Part shown: positions 26,568 to 57,533 of the stretch, in pieces
Layout: every line of letters begins with the position of its first letter
Position numbering within the stretch: position 1 is the first letter of the stretch
NCBI GenBank assembly: GCA_011056645.1
Contig: DSEL01000186.1
Coordinates: 1 to 57,533, forward strand
Origin: Candidatus Sediminicultor quartus
Lineage (GTDB): Bacteria > Atribacterota > Phoenicimicrobiia > Phoenicimicrobiales > Phoenicimicrobiaceae
Length of the DNA stretch: 57,533 nt
Direction: 5' to 3'
Program-made: the position numbers and the translations under genes
The notes under the pieces: model-generated
The model's database searches: none
What the model was told of the DNA's origin: nothing
What the model saw: the letters and a program-made list of their open reading frames with translations, nothing else

Positions 26568-27842
26568 ATGAAAAAGTTATTCACTATTTTTCTTTTTGTG
26601 CTTCTTCTATCTATCACCATGAATGCAGCTGCTAATATGGAAATTACTTTCTGGACGCACGAGGACCCGAATAGAACGGAAATTGAAGATAGATATATTG
26701 CTGAATTTGAGCAGGCTAATCCAGGAGTGACCATCAAGAGAGTTACCAGTGGTTCAGGTCAAATTCAGGAATTAGTTCTTACTGCCTTTGCTGCTAATCA
26801 AGGTCCGGATATCTTCAATATGTCGATTGAAGATGAATATGCCTATATAGTCAATGAGCGTCTTGCTCCTGTTGACTTCGAAGCGGCAGGTTATCCCAGT
26901 CTGCAGGCAGTTTACGATGCTTATATCCCCGGGGTATTAGATCCGGTAACCTATAAAGGACAACTTTATGGACTGCCATTAGAATTAACTAATTGGTGTA
27001 TCTTTATTAATAAAAAAGTATTTAGGGATGCTGGGTTAGACCCTGAAAAGGATTATCCTAAAACCTGGGAAGAAATGGTGGAAGTATCAGATAAATTATG
27101 TATCCGCGAAGGTGAAATTCTTAACAGAAGAGGATTTGACTTCAGATACCCCTATTATCTTGTAGCCATGGTACCTATGGTTGAACAACTCGGAGGACAG
27201 TTAATTAGCGATGATGGTAAAACTGCTATTGTCAATGACCAAGCCTGGCTAAAATTTCTTAAATTTATGCAGGAATGGGGTCCCAGCGGTAGAAATCTCG
27301 GTTCACCGACTTATACCAATGCCAGAAAGCTTTTCAACATGGATAATAATGATATAGGTATGTGTAATACCGGCCTTTATCAAGTAGGAAGGATTAACGC
27401 AGATAATCCTGCTTTTTATGAAAGTAAAGAATGGATGATTGTTCCCTTCCCGCAATTCGAAGATGCAGTAAAAGATGTTCCTGCAGCGTATTATGGACAT
27501 TATTATATGGTCAATGGGCAGAAACCGAAAGAAAATCAGCAAATGGCCTGGAAATTTGTTGCCTATATGCTTAGCCATCCAGAAGAATATCTGACCAAAG
27601 TCAATATTATCCAGCCTACAGTTGAACTGATGAATTCAGAGACCTATAAATCTATGCCTTACTCTGATGTATTTACCAATGATATGGCAAAAGGCCATAT
27701 CGTATATTATGGAGAGAATAGTGCCAAAATTCAGTCACATATCAGGGAAGCAGTAGAATCAGTCATGTTAGCCGGGGTCTCACCAGAGGATGCATTGAAA
27801 ACATTAAAGAGAAAAGTACAGGAAGTACTCGACGAAGGATAA
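26568..27842 (+). CDS. Carbohydrate ABC transporter substrate-binding protein (family 1)
   Basis: Signal peptide MKKLFTIF..., GPDIF, YGLP and PKTWEE motifs. Confidence 0.9.
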   Translation: MKKLFTIFLFVLLLSITMNAAANMEITFWTHEDPNRTEIEDRYIAEFEQANPGVTIKRVTSGSGQIQELVLTAFAANQGPDIFNMSIEDEYAYIVNERLAPVDFEAAGYPSLQAVYDAYIPGVLDPVTYKGQLYGLPLELTNWCIFINKKVFRDAGLDPEKDYPKTWEEMVEVSDKLCIREGEILNRRGFDFRYPYYLVAMVPMVEQLGGQLISDDGKTAIVNDQAWLKFLKFMQEWGPSGRNLGSPTYTNARKLFNMDNNDIGMCNTGLYQVGRINADNPAFYESKEWMIVPFPQFEDAVKDVPAAYYGHYYMVNGQKPKENQQMAWKFVAYMLSHPEEYLTKVNIIQPTVELMNSETYKSMPYSDVFTNDMAKGHIVYYGENSAKIQSHIREAVESVMLAGVSPEDALKTLKRKVQEVLDEG

Positions 27843-43267: not shown

Positions 43268-44599
43268 ATGTTGATCGTCGGAAATGGAACAGTTCTTACT
43301 TTTGATAAAAATTCCCGGGTTATCTCTAAGGGCGGAGTAGTAATCGAGGAAGAGAGAATTTTGGCAGTCGGGGATACGGCAAAATTACTGATCAAATATC
43401 CTAAAGCCGCATTTAAAGATGTTCAAGGCAAGATAATAATGCCGGGTATGATTAATACTCATATGCACCTTTATAGCACTTTTGCTCGAGGTATGAACCT
43501 TAAAACTGAGCAACCACCTAAAAATTTTGTGGAAATATTAGAAAAACTATGGTGGAGATTAGATAAAATTTTAAACGAAGAAGATATATATTGCAGTGCT
43601 ATTTATGCTCTTTTAGATAGTGTTAAAAAAGGAACTACCACTATTTTTGATCATCATGCCAGCAGCAATCTTATCGATGGTAGTTTAGACATTATTACTG
43701 AAGCAGTCCGACAAACCGGTATTCGGGCAAATCTATCGTACGAGATTTCCGATCGGGATGGTCATGAAAAAGCTTTAGATGGGATCAGAGAAAACGAAAG
43801 ATTTATTAAAAAAGCACAGCAGGAAGGCAATAATTGCCTGGGAGGATTAATCGGACTTCATGCTTCCTTTACATTGAATAATGAGACTTTAACTGAAGTG
43901 GCTGCTCTGGCAGACAGGCTGAGAGTCCCTTTTCATATTCACGTTGCTGAGGGTAAAGCCGATTACTATGAAAGTAAAACCAGGGGTTATCAAGGGGTAG
44001 CCGAACGCTTAAATCGCTTTCATATCCTGCGACCCGGTACTTTGGCTATCCATGGAGTTTATCTTAAAGAAGAGGAATTAGAAGTTATCAAGGAGCACAA
44101 CAGTTACTTAATCCATAATCCAGAATCTAATATGGGTAATGCAGTGGGTACTGCTCCAATTAAAGCTGCCATGGATAAGGGTGTAATAGTAGGATTGGGG
44201 ACAGATGGTTATACCAGCGATATGTTTGAAAGTATTAAAGTAGCTAATCTATTACAAAAACACGATTCAGGTAATCCCCAGGCTGGCTGGGCAGAAGTCT
44301 TTAAGATAGTTTTTAAGAATAACTGTGAAATTGCATCCGGATTTTTTGGAGAAACTTTGGGCGTCCTTCAAGCTGGAGTCCCAGCGGATGTTATTGTGGT
44401 AGATTATTATCCGCCTACTCCTATTAACAGTGAAAATGCTTATTTCCATATTTTATTTGGTATAAGTGGAGATATGGTCGATACCACTATTGTCGGAGGT
44501 AAAATATTAATGGAAGATCGAGAGATATGTGGTATAGATTACCAAAGAATTACTAAAAGAGTAAGAGAACAAGCAGAGAAGTTTTGGAAACGATTTTAA
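43268..44599 (+). CDS. ssnA: SsnA-like aminohydrolase
   Basis: NTHMHLYSTFARG, DHHAS, GLHASFT, HIHVAE, HNPESNMGN and GTDG motifs. Confidence 0.85.
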   Translation: MLIVGNGTVLTFDKNSRVISKGGVVIEEERILAVGDTAKLLIKYPKAAFKDVQGKIIMPGMINTHMHLYSTFARGMNLKTEQPPKNFVEILEKLWWRLDKILNEEDIYCSAIYALLDSVKKGTTTIFDHHASSNLIDGSLDIITEAVRQTGIRANLSYEISDRDGHEKALDGIRENERFIKKAQQEGNNCLGGLIGLHASFTLNNETLTEVAALADRLRVPFHIHVAEGKADYYESKTRGYQGVAERLNRFHILRPGTLAIHGVYLKEEELEVIKEHNSYLIHNPESNMGNAVGTAPIKAAMDKGVIVGLGTDGYTSDMFESIKVANLLQKHDSGNPQAGWAEVFKIVFKNNCEIASGFFGETLGVLQAGVPADVIVVDYYPPTPINSENAYFHILFGISGDMVDTTIVGGKILMEDREICGIDYQRITKRVREQAEKFWKRF

Positions 44600-44722
44600 A
44601 ACTCCCCCTGTCTTTATGAAGGTAAAAGCTCCTATTTATATGGATAAAGCTTATTCAATAGATGATCAATTTTTATATAATAAAGATATAAAAAATATTT
44701 TTAAAATTTGTTTAAAATTTAC

Positions 44723-44750
44723 TTGACATTGCATGAAAAATAAGTATACT
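44723..44750 (+). promoter_or_regulatory. Sigma70/SigA-type promoter
   Basis: TTGACA-16 nt-TATACT. Confidence 0.7.
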
Positions 44751-44756
44751 TATTCA

Positions 44757-44884
44757 GTGTATAATTGATAATTGTTTGAATGATGTACTAAATTAAGGTA
44801 ACAAACAACAAAACAATCTTTTTCATAATTATACCTCCTTTACAAGCTCGCTTTGCTCATGGCAAGGCGAGCTTTTATTTTTTT
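44757..44884 (+). ncRNA. Candidate ~125-nt small RNA or leader with an anti-Shine-Dalgarno sequence
   Basis: Bounded by a consensus promoter and an intrinsic terminator, with no plus-strand ORF. Contains a C/A-rich tract and ACCTCCTTT (44833-44841). No known family recognised. Confidence 0.45.
44844..44884 (+). terminator. Rho-independent terminator
   Basis: AAGCTCGCTTTGC-TCATG-GCAAGGCGAGCTT 13-bp stem (one G.U) followed by a long T tract. Confidence 0.85.
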
Positions 44885-44979
44885 CGTAAAAAAAGAGGAT
44901 TTATAAAAACATTTATAGAATTATAATTATATCTAACTGGCAAATAATAAAAACATCATTTTTTCCAAAGGAGAAAATT

Positions 44980-45609
44980 ATAATAAATAAAATAAGTTTT
45001 TTACTAATTTTTATCCTGATCTTAAATATATTCCTGTGGTTAGGTAATTTTTCAGCAGATAGTAAGTTTTACGTCATTAAGGATCAAGCGGGAAATATAG
45101 TGCGCTTTACTTCCCAGCATAAGATTACCGGGGAAGAGAAGGCAGCAGGCTACACTATTATTGAAAAATATAGTCTCCCCAAAGAGACAGATCCTTATGG
45201 CTTTAATAAAATAGATTGGGAAAAAGCAGAAGCAAAAGCAGAAGAAATAAAAAAAGCATTGAAAGCCGGGAAGGATAAAGATCTGCCCTATCCGCAATTT
45301 ACCGTAGTGGCCACCGCTTATACTCCCCACCAGAGATCATGTTGGCCTTATGCTGATGGTTTTACTTCAACGAACTACAAAGCCGGATATAGAAGCATAG
45401 CGATTGACCCTGAATACGGTATTTTTCGTTATGGAGATGTGTTATATATAGAAGGTTACGGAGTAGGGTTAGCCAATGATTGTGGAAGTGCTATTATAGG
45501 GAACAGGATAGATGTGTGTTACGACCTGGGGGATGAGCAAAAAGCCCTGGATTGGGGAAAGAAAAAAGTAAGGACATGGATTTTAACTCGATTGGCAGGT
45601 GATAAGTAG
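44980..45609 (+). CDS. Secreted or membrane-anchored 3D-domain cell-wall protein
   Basis: ATAY, IAIDP, ANDCGSAIIGNRID (three-Asp domain). The frame is open upstream of the GTG at 45100 and encodes a hydrophobic signal-like segment. Start placed at ATA 44980 behind AAAGGAG by inference. Confidence 0.75.
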   Translation: MINKISFLLIFILILNIFLWLGNFSADSKFYVIKDQAGNIVRFTSQHKITGEEKAAGYTIIEKYSLPKETDPYGFNKIDWEKAEAKAEEIKKALKAGKDKDLPYPQFTVVATAYTPHQRSCWPYADGFTSTNYKAGYRSIAIDPEYGIFRYGDVLYIEGYGVGLANDCGSAIIGNRIDVCYDLGDEQKALDWGKKKVRTWILTRLAGDK

Positions 45610-45681
45610 TATTTTTTAAAATAAAAAAGAAGAGAATTTTGTTTGAATATTTAAAAAAATGGTGTAATGAGGAGGAAATCA

Positions 45682-46149
45682 ATGAAAAAAATTAATTATC
45701 TATTTGGTTTTTTGCTTTTGGTTATAGGAATAGTATTAATATTATCGAACTTTGGGATAATAAAAATTATTTGGGAGAATTTATGGCCTTTATTTTTATT
45801 AGTACCGGGGATTATTTTTGAATTGAGTTATTTTATCTACAGGAATGATTCCGGTCTTTTGGTCCCAGGGGGGATACTTCTTACTTATGGTTTATTATTT
45901 TTAGTTAATGTTACATATGGCTGGCACTTGATGGAAGATTTGTGGCCTATCTTCCCTTTGGGGGTAGCAATAGGTTTACTTCAGCTTTATCTTTTTGGAA
46001 CGCGAGAAAAGGGACTCTTAATTCCAATCGGGATTTTGAGCACCGTTTCTCTATTTTTCTTGGTCAATAATTTATTTTTTGTTGATTTTGCTTTTTTAGC
46101 AGGAATTGTATTAGTAATAATTGGAGCATGGTTTATAATAAAAAAATAG
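45682..46149 (+). CDS. Small multi-pass membrane protein (LiaF/DUF5668-like TM repeats)
   Basis: Repeated LWPLF/LWPIF hydrophobic motifs. ATG at 45682 after GAGGAGG. Confidence 0.7.
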   Translation: MKKINYLFGFLLLVIGIVLILSNFGIIKIIWENLWPLFLLVPGIIFELSYFIYRNDSGLLVPGGILLTYGLLFLVNVTYGWHLMEDLWPIFPLGVAIGLLQLYLFGTREKGLLIPIGILSTVSLFFLVNNLFFVDFAFLAGIVLVIIGAWFIIKK

Positions 46150-46190
46150 GGACACATCCCATTAAATTTATCAGGATGTGTCCCTATTTT
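46143..46190. repeat. REP doublet, GGGACACATCCC family
   Basis: AAAATAGGGACACATCC ... GGATGTGTCCCTATTTT 17-bp arms. The left arm contains the upstream gene's TAG stop. Confidence 0.85.
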
Positions 46191-46452
46191 CCAATGTTGG
46201 CTCTTGTTTTTTCCTTGGGCGTTTGGTATATTTATACTAATTATAGTAGATGAAAATAGTAGCACGATCTAGGAAGAATAGTATCGATATATTCGAAGAG
46301 TATTACCGGAAACCAACTGATTTACTGTCCTATCATTAGAAGATTTTATTGAAAAAAAATCCTATTACCATACTCATTAATTTAATAAATTTAATAGATA
46401 GTACAGATAAGAGCTTTAATTAATCCCGCATACAACAAAGAAGGATAAAGGA

Positions 46453-47994
46453 GTGACCTTGGATAATTCAGAAGGTTATGCAATCGAATTACGAGGAATT
46501 GTTAAGCGGTTTCCCGGTGTAATTGCTAATAACGGTATTGATCTCAAGGTTTGTCGTGGCGAGATTCATTGTCTTCTCGGAGAGAATGGCGCAGGTAAAA
46601 CTACTTTAATGCGTGTCCTTTATGGCCTCTATCAACCCGACGAAGGGGAGATTATCCTAAACGGCCAACCAATTCAAATGACCTCTCCTCGAACTGCACT
46701 TAATTACCATATCGGAATGGTACACCAACACTTCCGCCTTGTTCCTACGCTATCGGTGGAGGAGAACATTATTCTCGGTTTAGATGAGGGAACCGGTTTA
46801 TTTATGAATTTCCACAAGATAAGAGAAAAGATTTCATCTATCGCTCGAGAATATGGTCTACCGGTCGACTTGCAGGCAAAGATTTGGCAGTTAACTGTTG
46901 GTCAACAACAGCGGGTGGAAATCTTAAAGGCGCTTTATCGTAAGGTCAATATCCTGATCATGGACGAGCCAACAAGTGTCCTTACCCCCCAGGAGGTTGA
47001 TCAATTATTTACCACCTTACGTACCTTAGTTGATGACGGATTAACTATTATCTTCATTACTCACAAACTTGATGAGGTGATGCAGGTGAGTGACCGGGTG
47101 ACAGTACTGCGTAAGGGAAAGGTTGTAGCAAATCTCATTACTACCAAGACGGATAAACCAACTTTGGCCAAGCTAATGGTCGGTCGCGAGGTGGTCTTTC
47201 GTCTAAAGAAGAGCCCCTTGAAACAAAGAGAGAAGCTTCTTGAGGTAAATGACCTGCATGTATTGAACGATCGCGGACTCCCGGCTCTTCGTGGACTATC
47301 CTTTGATCTTTTCGGAGGAGAGATTCTGGGTATAGCCGGAGTATCAGGCAACGGGCAAACAGAACTCGCGGAAGTTATTACCGGGCTACGTAAGTCAACA
47401 AGGGGAAAAATATTATTAGCCAACAAAGAAGTTACTAATTATTCTGCGCGAGAAATGAACGATCTGCATGTTGCTCACATTCCGTCGGAGAGAATTAAGA
47501 TGGGAATTGTCCCTGCTCTTAGCATTCGTGAGAATCTGATTCTGAAAAAATATTGTCGACCTCCTTTTTCTCATAGAGAATTTCTTAACAACAAAGCAAT
47601 TGAAGATAATGCACGTTGCGCAATGTCTGATTTCCAAATAACTGCTCCGAGTTGTGAAACACCTGCAAAACTCCTCTCAGGAGGGAACATTCAAAAAGTA
47701 ATCCTGGCACGCGAACTATCCGAAAGACCTAATCTGATTGTTGCGGTGCATCCTACTTATGGTCTCGATATCGGTGCTACCGAACAGGTGCGGCAAACTC
47801 TCTTAGCACAACGGGAACAAGGTGCAGCCACTTTGCTCATCTCAGAGGATTTAGAGGAAATTATGACCCTGTCTGACCGGATTCTGGTCCTATTCAATGG
47901 TGAGGCAATGGGTATTCTCAATACAGAGAGAGTCGATATAGAGCAGATTGGTTTAATGATGGCTGGCACAAGGTACCATAAGGGAGAAGAATAA
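46453..47994 (+). CDS. Nucleoside/purine ABC transporter ATP-binding protein (duplicated NBD)
   Basis: GENGAGKT, GMVHQHF, MDEPT, LSGGNIQK and PTYGLD motifs. Confidence 0.93.
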   Translation: MTLDNSEGYAIELRGIVKRFPGVIANNGIDLKVCRGEIHCLLGENGAGKTTLMRVLYGLYQPDEGEIILNGQPIQMTSPRTALNYHIGMVHQHFRLVPTLSVEENIILGLDEGTGLFMNFHKIREKISSIAREYGLPVDLQAKIWQLTVGQQQRVEILKALYRKVNILIMDEPTSVLTPQEVDQLFTTLRTLVDDGLTIIFITHKLDEVMQVSDRVTVLRKGKVVANLITTKTDKPTLAKLMVGREVVFRLKKSPLKQREKLLEVNDLHVLNDRGLPALRGLSFDLFGGEILGIAGVSGNGQTELAEVITGLRKSTRGKILLANKEVTNYSAREMNDLHVAHIPSERIKMGIVPALSIRENLILKKYCRPPFSHREFLNNKAIEDNARCAMSDFQITAPSCETPAKLLSGGNIQKVILARELSERPNLIVAVHPTYGLDIGATEQVRQTLLAQREQGAATLLISEDLEEIMTLSDRILVLFNGEAMGILNTERVDIEQIGLMMAGTRYHKGEE

Positions 47995-57309: not shown

Positions 57310-57408
57310 TGGCGGGAGGGGTAGGAATCGAACCCACCGCAGCAATTAAAAATAATTACCGCCCACGGATTTGAAGTCCGCAAGGCCCACCAGAGCCTAT
57401 CCGCTCCC
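57310..57408 (-). tRNA. selC: tRNA-Sec (UCA anticodon), 99 nt, CCA encoded
   Basis: 6-bp D stem with 4-nt loop, CTTCAAA anticodon loop, 10-bp variable stem, TTCGATT T loop, G73-CCA. Directly upstream of selA. Confidence 0.95.
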
Positions 57409-57533
57409 CTATTGTTTAACTTTTTTAGTTTTTTTCTATTTTAATTATAAATTGTATCGCAAGACTTTACAAGGGGAGATATTAAAGTATCAAGCATATA
57501 GTATCTATTGTCGAGTTAAGAAAGAGAAGAAAA

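Follow-up and report, generated by a model that had tools for sequence, protein, structure and literature searches.

The sequence studied here is a stretch of 57,533 nucleotides (nt), called the window below, from contig DSEL01000186.1 of Candidatus Sediminicultor quartus (assembly GCA_011056645.1), a 2.25-Mb metagenome-assembled genome (MAG) with 35% G+C. On its plus strand, between the gene for an SsnA-like amidohydrolase and that for a 3D-domain protein, lies what is very likely a real small-RNA (sRNA) gene (44757-44884), whose predicted product contains the reverse complement of an entire ribosome-binding site together with a start codon. Sequence reading and a promoter scan located a sigma-70-type promoter with the -35 hexamer TTGACA at 44723-44728, a 16-nt spacer and the -10 hexamer TATACT at 44745-44750; it matched at 11 of the 12 positions and was the top promoter-like site in the 3 kb scanned (43500-46500). 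Transcription would start from it at about G44757. A Rho-independent terminator follows at 44844-44884, in which a stem of 14 pairs, seven of them G-C, joins 44844-44857 to 44861-44874 and precedes a U-tract (TTATTTTTTT / UUAUUUUUUU) that runs to 44884; no other strong terminator was found nearby by the scan. The transcript predicted from these signals is about 128 nt long and folds with a minimum free energy (MFE) of -32.2 kcal/mol (z = -5.06), a stability equaled by none of 200 shuffled sequences. Inspection by eye found just one plus-strand reading frame, of 3 codons, in it. A prediction made earlier from the letters of the window alone (the original prediction) had placed here a TTGACA-16-TATACT promoter, about 125 nt of transcript and a strong terminator, and each of these lies where it was placed.

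The invariant part of the RNA is a core between the 5′ domain and the terminator, both of which vary in sequence across the family while the core does not change. In an alignment of 29 family members (A1), the columns UUUUCAU, UUAUA and CUCCUU were invariant, and the family core reads UUUU(U)-CAU-N7-CCUCCUU(U). In the window RNA it begins with a U5 run at 44819-44823, which complements AAAAA in Lys codons; next comes CAU at 44824-44826, the complement of an AUG start codon. The alignment and a profile of initiation regions then define a 7-nt spacer, AAUUAUA, at 44827-44833, and the alignment and 16S rRNA tails define an anti-Shine-Dalgarno (anti-SD) box ACCUCCUUU at 44833-44841, with CCUCC at 44834-44838 and CCUCCUUU at 44834-44841. 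The reverse complement of the core is AAAGGAGG-UAUAAUU-AUG-AAAAAG..., and in antisense the core matches an optimal translation-initiation region (TIR) exactly. In a crude set of initiation regions from this genome, G-rich positions peaked at -13 to -9, and the 7-nt spacer sets CAU at this usual SD-AUG distance. As the 16S rRNA is absent from this MAG assembly, the 16S 3′ ends of four relatives within the order were used instead; ACCUCCUUU, or ACCUCCUUUC in the second of the order's two families (f2), equals nine bases of the order's 16S 3′ tail GGAUCACCUCCUUUCU. It is also worth mentioning that an A/C-rich tract (44800-44817) and the entire core together form a 47-nt stretch free of G (44799-44845). 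Such depletion is general: in 45 of 50 members the corresponding stretch of about 45 nt contained 0-2 G, whereas the G fraction of the genome is 0.18.

BLAST detected four copies of the 3′ two-thirds of the element in the genome, and a covariance model built from the 29 members (R1) added a fifth. The five are C3:44796-44882, which is the window copy and scored 101.6 bits, C109:2728-2814, C115:4764-4850, C140:1085-1171 and C1:2497-2579. Orthologs of the window copy in the same genus were 85-89% identical across the promoter and the RNA. R1 matched one to five copies in 44 of the 52 genomes of the same order, which comprises two families, and none in 34 genomes from the phylum's other families; the carriers include Ca. 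Sediminicultor relatives such as Ca. Sediminicultor tertius, in the class Ca. Phoenicimicrobiia of the JS1 lineage. Because the same unit recurs five times in one genome and throughout most of an order, the locus is far beyond chance. When 185,579 species genomes were searched for exact matches to the 23-nt core, 119 stretches were obtained, among which R1 gave at least 84 bits to 12 loci and at most 50 bits to the remainder. At least ten of these 12, all but L137 and L142, are named as Atribacterota in their records. Those of the low-scoring stretches that were read in context were ordinary gene starts in antisense, which a generic SD-ATG-AAA sequence would lead one to expect.

Conservation extends to the signals that make the element a gene. 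The upstream sequence available was sufficient in 50 non-redundant members, and 49 of these had a plus-strand TTGACA-N16-18-TAnnnT located 20-70 nt upstream of the U-run/CAU. Across the 29 aligned members, the terminator helix was paired in 97.6% of cells, and 8 of 13 pairs were altered on both sides, a covariation score reached by none of 500 shuffles. The covariation and conservation in relatives that the original prediction had named as a check were thus both found. Contexts, however, differ among the paralogs and between the two families of the order, and subtypes that share the core and a similar terminator have divergent 5′ ends. Subtype A, the window copy, keeps the same two neighbors in L007, the one genus ortholog whose flanks were examined, and subtype B (C109) resembles it. 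Subtype C (C115 and C140) has the additional C-rich tracts CCACCACCACCC and CCGUCCCCC, and subtype D (C1) follows tRNA-Ser(UGA) at a distance of about 80 nt. The second family has the subtypes f2-1 and f2-3/4, and one f2-1 copy lies between PspC-like and PgsB-like genes. Such unrelated contexts of paralogs and distant orthologs indicate an independent unit. As is general for trans-acting sRNAs, this unit has its own promoter and intrinsic terminator independent of the neighboring genes, a seed conserved above the rest, and no conserved open reading frame (ORF) on either strand.

Two of these subtypes have further features in their surroundings. The subtype C copies (L004 = C115:4650-4900 and L003 = C140:970-1230) sit in a duplicated module, in which a conserved segment of about 100 nt past the sRNA terminator carries a perfect TTGACA-17-TATAAT promoter. 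In one contig this promoter faces a HicB/HicA-like pair, with a RAYT-type transposase gene on the other side, and in the second contig it faces a lipoprotein gene. The subtype D copy (C1:2497-2744, minus strand) is on the same strand as the upstream tRNA-Ser(UGA), and in another genus (L185) the subtype D copy likewise follows the 3′ end of a tRNA.

Single-sequence MFE folding and base-pair probabilities of the window RNA predicted a 5′ domain at 44759-44834, composed of an outer helix, in which GUAUAAUUGA (44759-44768) pairs with 44820-44821 and 44827-44834, and an inner hairpin (44771-44777 with 44811-44817). This domain would partially mask the anti-AUG and spacer region. The CCUCC motif was predicted to be mostly unpaired, with a probability of 0.71 in the window RNA and 0.47-1.0 over ten representatives, eight of which reached 0.7 or more, and the U-run, CAU and spacer were covered by the 5′ domain to a variable extent among the representatives. 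A second, perfect TATAAT is present at 44760-44765 on the plus strand, 10 nt past the first -10 box and inside the predicted 5′ end. Subtypes A and B keep it, and it coincides with a 5′ arm GUAUAAUU capable of pairing with the spacer AAUUAUAC; it may serve as an alternative -10 box or as part of the structure.

An Rfam/Infernal search, also put forward with the original prediction, gave no family at the gathering threshold that covers the sRNA in the window. In a permissive scan, sub-threshold matches to sRNAs of Gram-positive bacteria covered the pyrimidine-rich stretch and the terminator: csRNA (RF02379; 25.9 bits, E = 0.34, against a gathering threshold of 57), ncr982 (RF02454; 30.0 against 50 bits), LhrC (RF00616; 28.1 against 110 bits) and RsaOG (RF01775; 26.9 against 50 bits). 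Like the csRNAs, the RNA occurs at unrelated loci in several closely similar copies per genome, is of the order of 90-150 nt, and combines a 5′ stem-loop, here only a predicted one, with a terminator stem-loop. The hosts are alike too, since streptococci lack Hfq and no Hfq match was found in any of the 52 genomes of this order, although the positive-control genomes matched. The csRNAs carry anti-SD and anti-AUG (CAU) motifs in an unpaired region between two stem-loops, occur as five similar copies at scattered loci, and were proposed to block translation-initiation regions (PMC3091779). The same architecture, with stem-loops flanking unpaired anti-SD and anti-AUG motifs in multiple copies, is seen here, and the terminator stem covaries. 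In contrast, csRNA promoters are CiaR dependent, with a TTTAAG direct repeat replacing the -35 element (PMC3091779), whereas the promoter here is a plain TTGACA/-10 one and 44690-44750 contains no TTTAAG-N5-TTTAAG. The present RNA further differs in its phylum, Atribacterota, in a complementarity that is unbroken over the SD, the 7-nt spacer, the AUG and the Lys codons, and in a core identical to the 16S 3′ tail over nine bases. The RNA follows the csRNA design but is not a csRNA.

Comparable likenesses and differences apply to other anti-SD sRNAs. LhrC1-5, ncr982, RsaOG and RsaE/RoxS also expose G-poor, C/U-rich motifs beside an intrinsic terminator and pair with SD sequences, but theirs are UCCC/CCCC motifs without an anti-AUG fixed at SD spacing. 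LhrC is likewise multi-copy, and it targets mRNAs of surface and secreted proteins. AbcR1 and AbcR2 are Hfq dependent and are unrelated to the present RNA in sequence and structure; no Rfam match to them was obtained here even at E values up to 10. According to two reports, these alpha-proteobacterial sibling anti-SD sRNAs act mostly on mRNAs of ABC-transporter periplasmic binding proteins (PMC5461406, PMC8844928). Their regulons resemble the enrichment of solute-binding protein (SBP) and secreted-protein mRNAs predicted below.

Based on these findings, we read 44757-44884 (+) as a non-coding sRNA of about 128 nt that belongs to a sibling family acting in trans through pairing with the SD, spacer, AUG and Lys codons of mRNAs, and we give this reading a probability of roughly 70%. 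A trans-acting anti-SD sRNA was one of four options that the original prediction had left side by side, and it is now favored because the element is an independent promoter-to-terminator gene found in varied contexts and multiple copies, with an invariant exposed core and with predicted targets enriched in signal peptides. In the mechanism we propose, the exposed CCUCCUUU box would bind the SD sequence of a target mRNA, and pairing would then spread through the spacer and start codon into the first Lys codons and open the 5′ helix of the sRNA. The duplex would block binding of the 30S subunit and so repress translation, and the mRNA may be destabilized as well; all of this would proceed without Hfq, which is absent from the order. 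The paralogs have the same core and differ in their 5′ extensions, which are A/C-rich or C-rich tracts, and these differences suggest overlapping but non-identical target sets. Judged from the genome sequence, the targets are likely to be genes with strong SD-AUG-AAA starts, which here belong disproportionately to secreted proteins, lipoproteins and ABC-transporter binding proteins.

Targets were predicted among 1,473 crudely called gene starts that carry an SD, and the real seeds gave stronger predicted duplexes than shuffled seeds. Among the top 5% of predicted targets of the C3, C109 and C1 copies, 27-34 of 74 (36-46%) had signal-peptide-like N-termini, compared with 16% in the background (Fisher p = 8e-6 to 4e-10), and no such enrichment was obtained with shuffled seeds. 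Genes for secreted proteins, lipoproteins and SBPs were enriched among these predicted targets. The best candidate was a gene for a 107-aa lipoprotein (C87:6842), with a predicted duplex of -32.1 kcal/mol and matches at 19 of the 20 bases that follow the AUG; its close orthologs gave -29 to -36 kcal/mol, and distant orthologs do not keep the pairing. The SBP gene at 26568, to which the original prediction had pointed as a possible target, is plausible, with a predicted pairing of -22.5 kcal/mol that ranks in the top ~4%, but it is not special. An A/C-rich tract that reads the hydrophobic codons of signal peptides was considered as a source of the preference and rejected, given that the tract alone produced no enrichment and shuffling it had no effect. 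In four genus relatives (L224, L227, L221 and L219), a gene for a 164-aa GNAT-type acetyltransferase starts with AAGGAGGAATAATTATGAAAAA, which differs from the perfect complement of the core by one or two mismatches, or by three in a fifth genome. No such near-match was found in the window's own genome, and this gene is a possible, weak candidate for a conserved target.

Several observations weigh against this reading or narrow it. The signal-peptide enrichment arises from the generic core alone, to which the A/C tract adds nothing, so the preference reflects the strong SD and AUG-AAA-AA(G) starts typical of exported proteins and is no proof of target specificity. The original prediction had itself cautioned that SD+ATGAAA is generic and a weak guide to targets, and this caution was justified. 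Moreover, the crude ORF/SD caller behind the target set favors SD-bearing starts. A near-perfect trans target, within three mismatches, was found neither in the genus nor in the order, where the pattern scans at up to three mismatches returned mainly the sRNA genes themselves, and a blastn-short search of the genome with the antisense core yielded only the sRNA genes and short generic SD/ATG matches. Lack of a near-perfect target is usual for trans-acting sRNAs, but it leaves only candidate targets. In structure, RNAalifold consensus folds of subtypes A and D recovered the terminator alone and did not support the 5′ helix; a conserved 5′ stem-loop was therefore rejected, and the helix stands as a prediction only. 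No sigma-70 promoter was recognizable in the subtype C copies when one was sought. Finally, 26-34 nt are invariant in f2, which is longer than a typical seed and could point to another constraint, for example a protein or ribosome partner.

A bolder form of the proposed trans action, which we consider doubtful, is that the siblings mimic the docking elements of the ribosome, namely ACCUCCUUU of the 16S tail and a CAU placed at start-codon distance, and thereby act as a class-level brake on the strongest SD-7 nt-AUG-AAA starts, disproportionately those of the secretome (binding proteins, lipoproteins and exported enzymes). If so, Hfq-less Atribacterota of the subseafloor would throttle the synthesis of envelope and uptake proteins en bloc, e.g., under energy limitation. 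A separate explanation, and an improbable one in our estimate, is that the RNAs are global decoys that titrate strong ribosome-binding sites in bulk, for instance in dormancy, or that they bind a protein or ribosomal partner. The idea stems from a core that copies the 16S 3′ tail and sets, at optimal spacing, a CAU resembling the initiator anticodon. The identity of ACCUCCUUU(C) with the 16S tail and the antisense relation of the core to the genome's consensus initiation region would suit such a role, as would the long invariant stretch in f2, the missing near-perfect target and the strong near-consensus promoters of one to five copies per genome; in addition, for 44% of the crude initiation regions the predicted pairing reaches -15 kcal/mol or better. 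To titrate hundreds of mRNAs stoichiometrically, however, the cell would need very high sRNA levels, and the distinct 5′ extensions of the paralogs point to diversified, specific targeting. To our knowledge, all well-studied anti-SD sRNAs (csRNA, LhrC and RoxS) act on defined target sets.

The strand opposite the core also has to be explained. As the original prediction had described, it bears a perfect SD and a 12-codon ORF (ATG...TAG) encoding MKKIVLLFVTLI* at 44788-44826 on the minus strand. An antitoxin/peptide pair like a type I toxin-antitoxin system had been one of its options; in the style of Ibs/Sib, the minus strand would encode a small hydrophobic peptide and the plus-strand RNA would be its fully complementary antitoxin. 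The likeness to Sib/Ibs of Escherichia coli, a multi-copy sRNA exactly opposite a short hydrophobic frame with its own SD, is real, as Sib/Ibs loci are multi-copy too, and the length of 12 codons is kept in the same-genus orthologs of subtype A. Nevertheless, we regard this explanation as highly improbable. Unlike that of Ibs, the frame here is conserved neither in length nor in sequence and can be as short as 5-12 codons: its length varied between 5 and 56 codons in 53 members, neither its stop nor its body is conserved, and it often extends into the promoter of the sRNA itself. Conservation is limited to MK(K/R), which is simply the antisense of the invariant RNA core, and the maximum of conservation falls on the complement of the SD and AUG and not on the ORF body. 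In the same-genus orthologs of subtype A, changes in codons 9-12 were mostly non-synonymous (V/A, A/T/V, L/S and V/I), and 12 residues are too short to cross a membrane. In addition, the scan of the minus strand between 44885 and 45000, beyond the terminator, detected no promoter-like site from which the frame could be transcribed. The micro-ORF was rejected as a real peptide because its length and sequence vary. The variable frame, set against a conserved plus-strand promoter and terminator, indicates that the micro-ORF is an incidental mirror image of the RNA function and not a gene.

Still less probable is a cis-acting leader or attenuator, in which read-through of the terminator would control the 3D-domain (cell-wall) gene downstream, another of the earlier options. 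That gene is co-oriented, begins about 95 nt downstream, and is likewise adjacent in L007, the sole genus ortholog with flanks examined. In contrast, the four paralogs and the f2 orthologs precede unrelated genes or occupy unrelated positions (HicAB, a lipoprotein gene, a PgsB-like gene, or after tRNA-Ser), and the interval from the terminator to the 3D gene contains a promoter-like TTTATA-16-TATAAT (44900-44927). Folding revealed no alternative antiterminator structure, and no riboswitch or other cis-regulatory Rfam family, including the ydaO type, rose above noise. Predicted pairing with the 3D start is weak (-9.6 kcal/mol), and adjacency is confined to subtype A; the 3D gene was therefore rejected as a target both in cis and in trans. 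The gene itself (44977-45609, +) has a signal-peptide-like N-terminus (...INKISFLLIFILILNIFLWLGNFSA...) with no ATG, GTG or TTG ahead of it. After the SD AAAGGAGA, its frame opens at ATT/ATA (44977-44982), and the same AAAGGAGAAAATTATAA arrangement is present in L007, which suggests from sequence that it may use a non-canonical AUU or AUA start codon.

The least probable explanation, that the locus is no RNA gene but a dispersed or mobile repeat of the MITE/REP type, or else the decayed start of a gene, would fit several copies on short contigs and the placement of the C115 and C140 copies in a larger duplicated module beside a RAYT transposase gene, but neither terminal inverted repeats nor target duplications were seen, genomes hold just one to five copies, the flanking genes of subtype A are the same in the one ortholog examined, and across the whole order the plus-strand promoter and terminator are conserved in constant orientation, with compensatory changes in the stem, which is also why the decayed gene start of the original prediction was dropped.

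The preferred reading, a sibling family of trans-acting sRNAs, would thus add a candidate regulator to Atribacterota, an abundant and largely uncultured phylum of anoxic subseafloor sediments. Genome comparison marks these RNAs as a putative family of anti-SD/anti-TIR siblings that is undescribed and confined to one order of the phylum (the JS1/Ca. Phoenicimicrobiia lineage), and our literature searches found no paper linking Atribacterota with small RNAs. The family is a concrete, testable candidate for post-transcriptional regulation in the JS1 lineage. The cultivated Atribacter laminatus, a member of another class, is unlikely to offer a native host, since no copy was found outside the order. 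The design is unusually explicit, with a whole ribosome-binding site and start codon mirrored in antisense by an RNA of Hfq-less bacteria, and a csRNA-type anti-TIR architecture would then have arisen outside Firmicutes too. The class of mechanism is already well known, and the advance lies in distribution and annotation rather than concept; model R1 can be used to annotate such genes in metagenomes.

Two further RNA motifs were detected by the Rfam searches. The only match in the window at the gathering threshold was tRNA-Sec (RF01852, 67.3 bits) at 57313-57409 on the minus strand. About 600 nt from the subtype B copy (C109), an abiF RNA motif (RF03085) was found at L002:923-959 (+), with 41.3 bits against a gathering threshold of 37.

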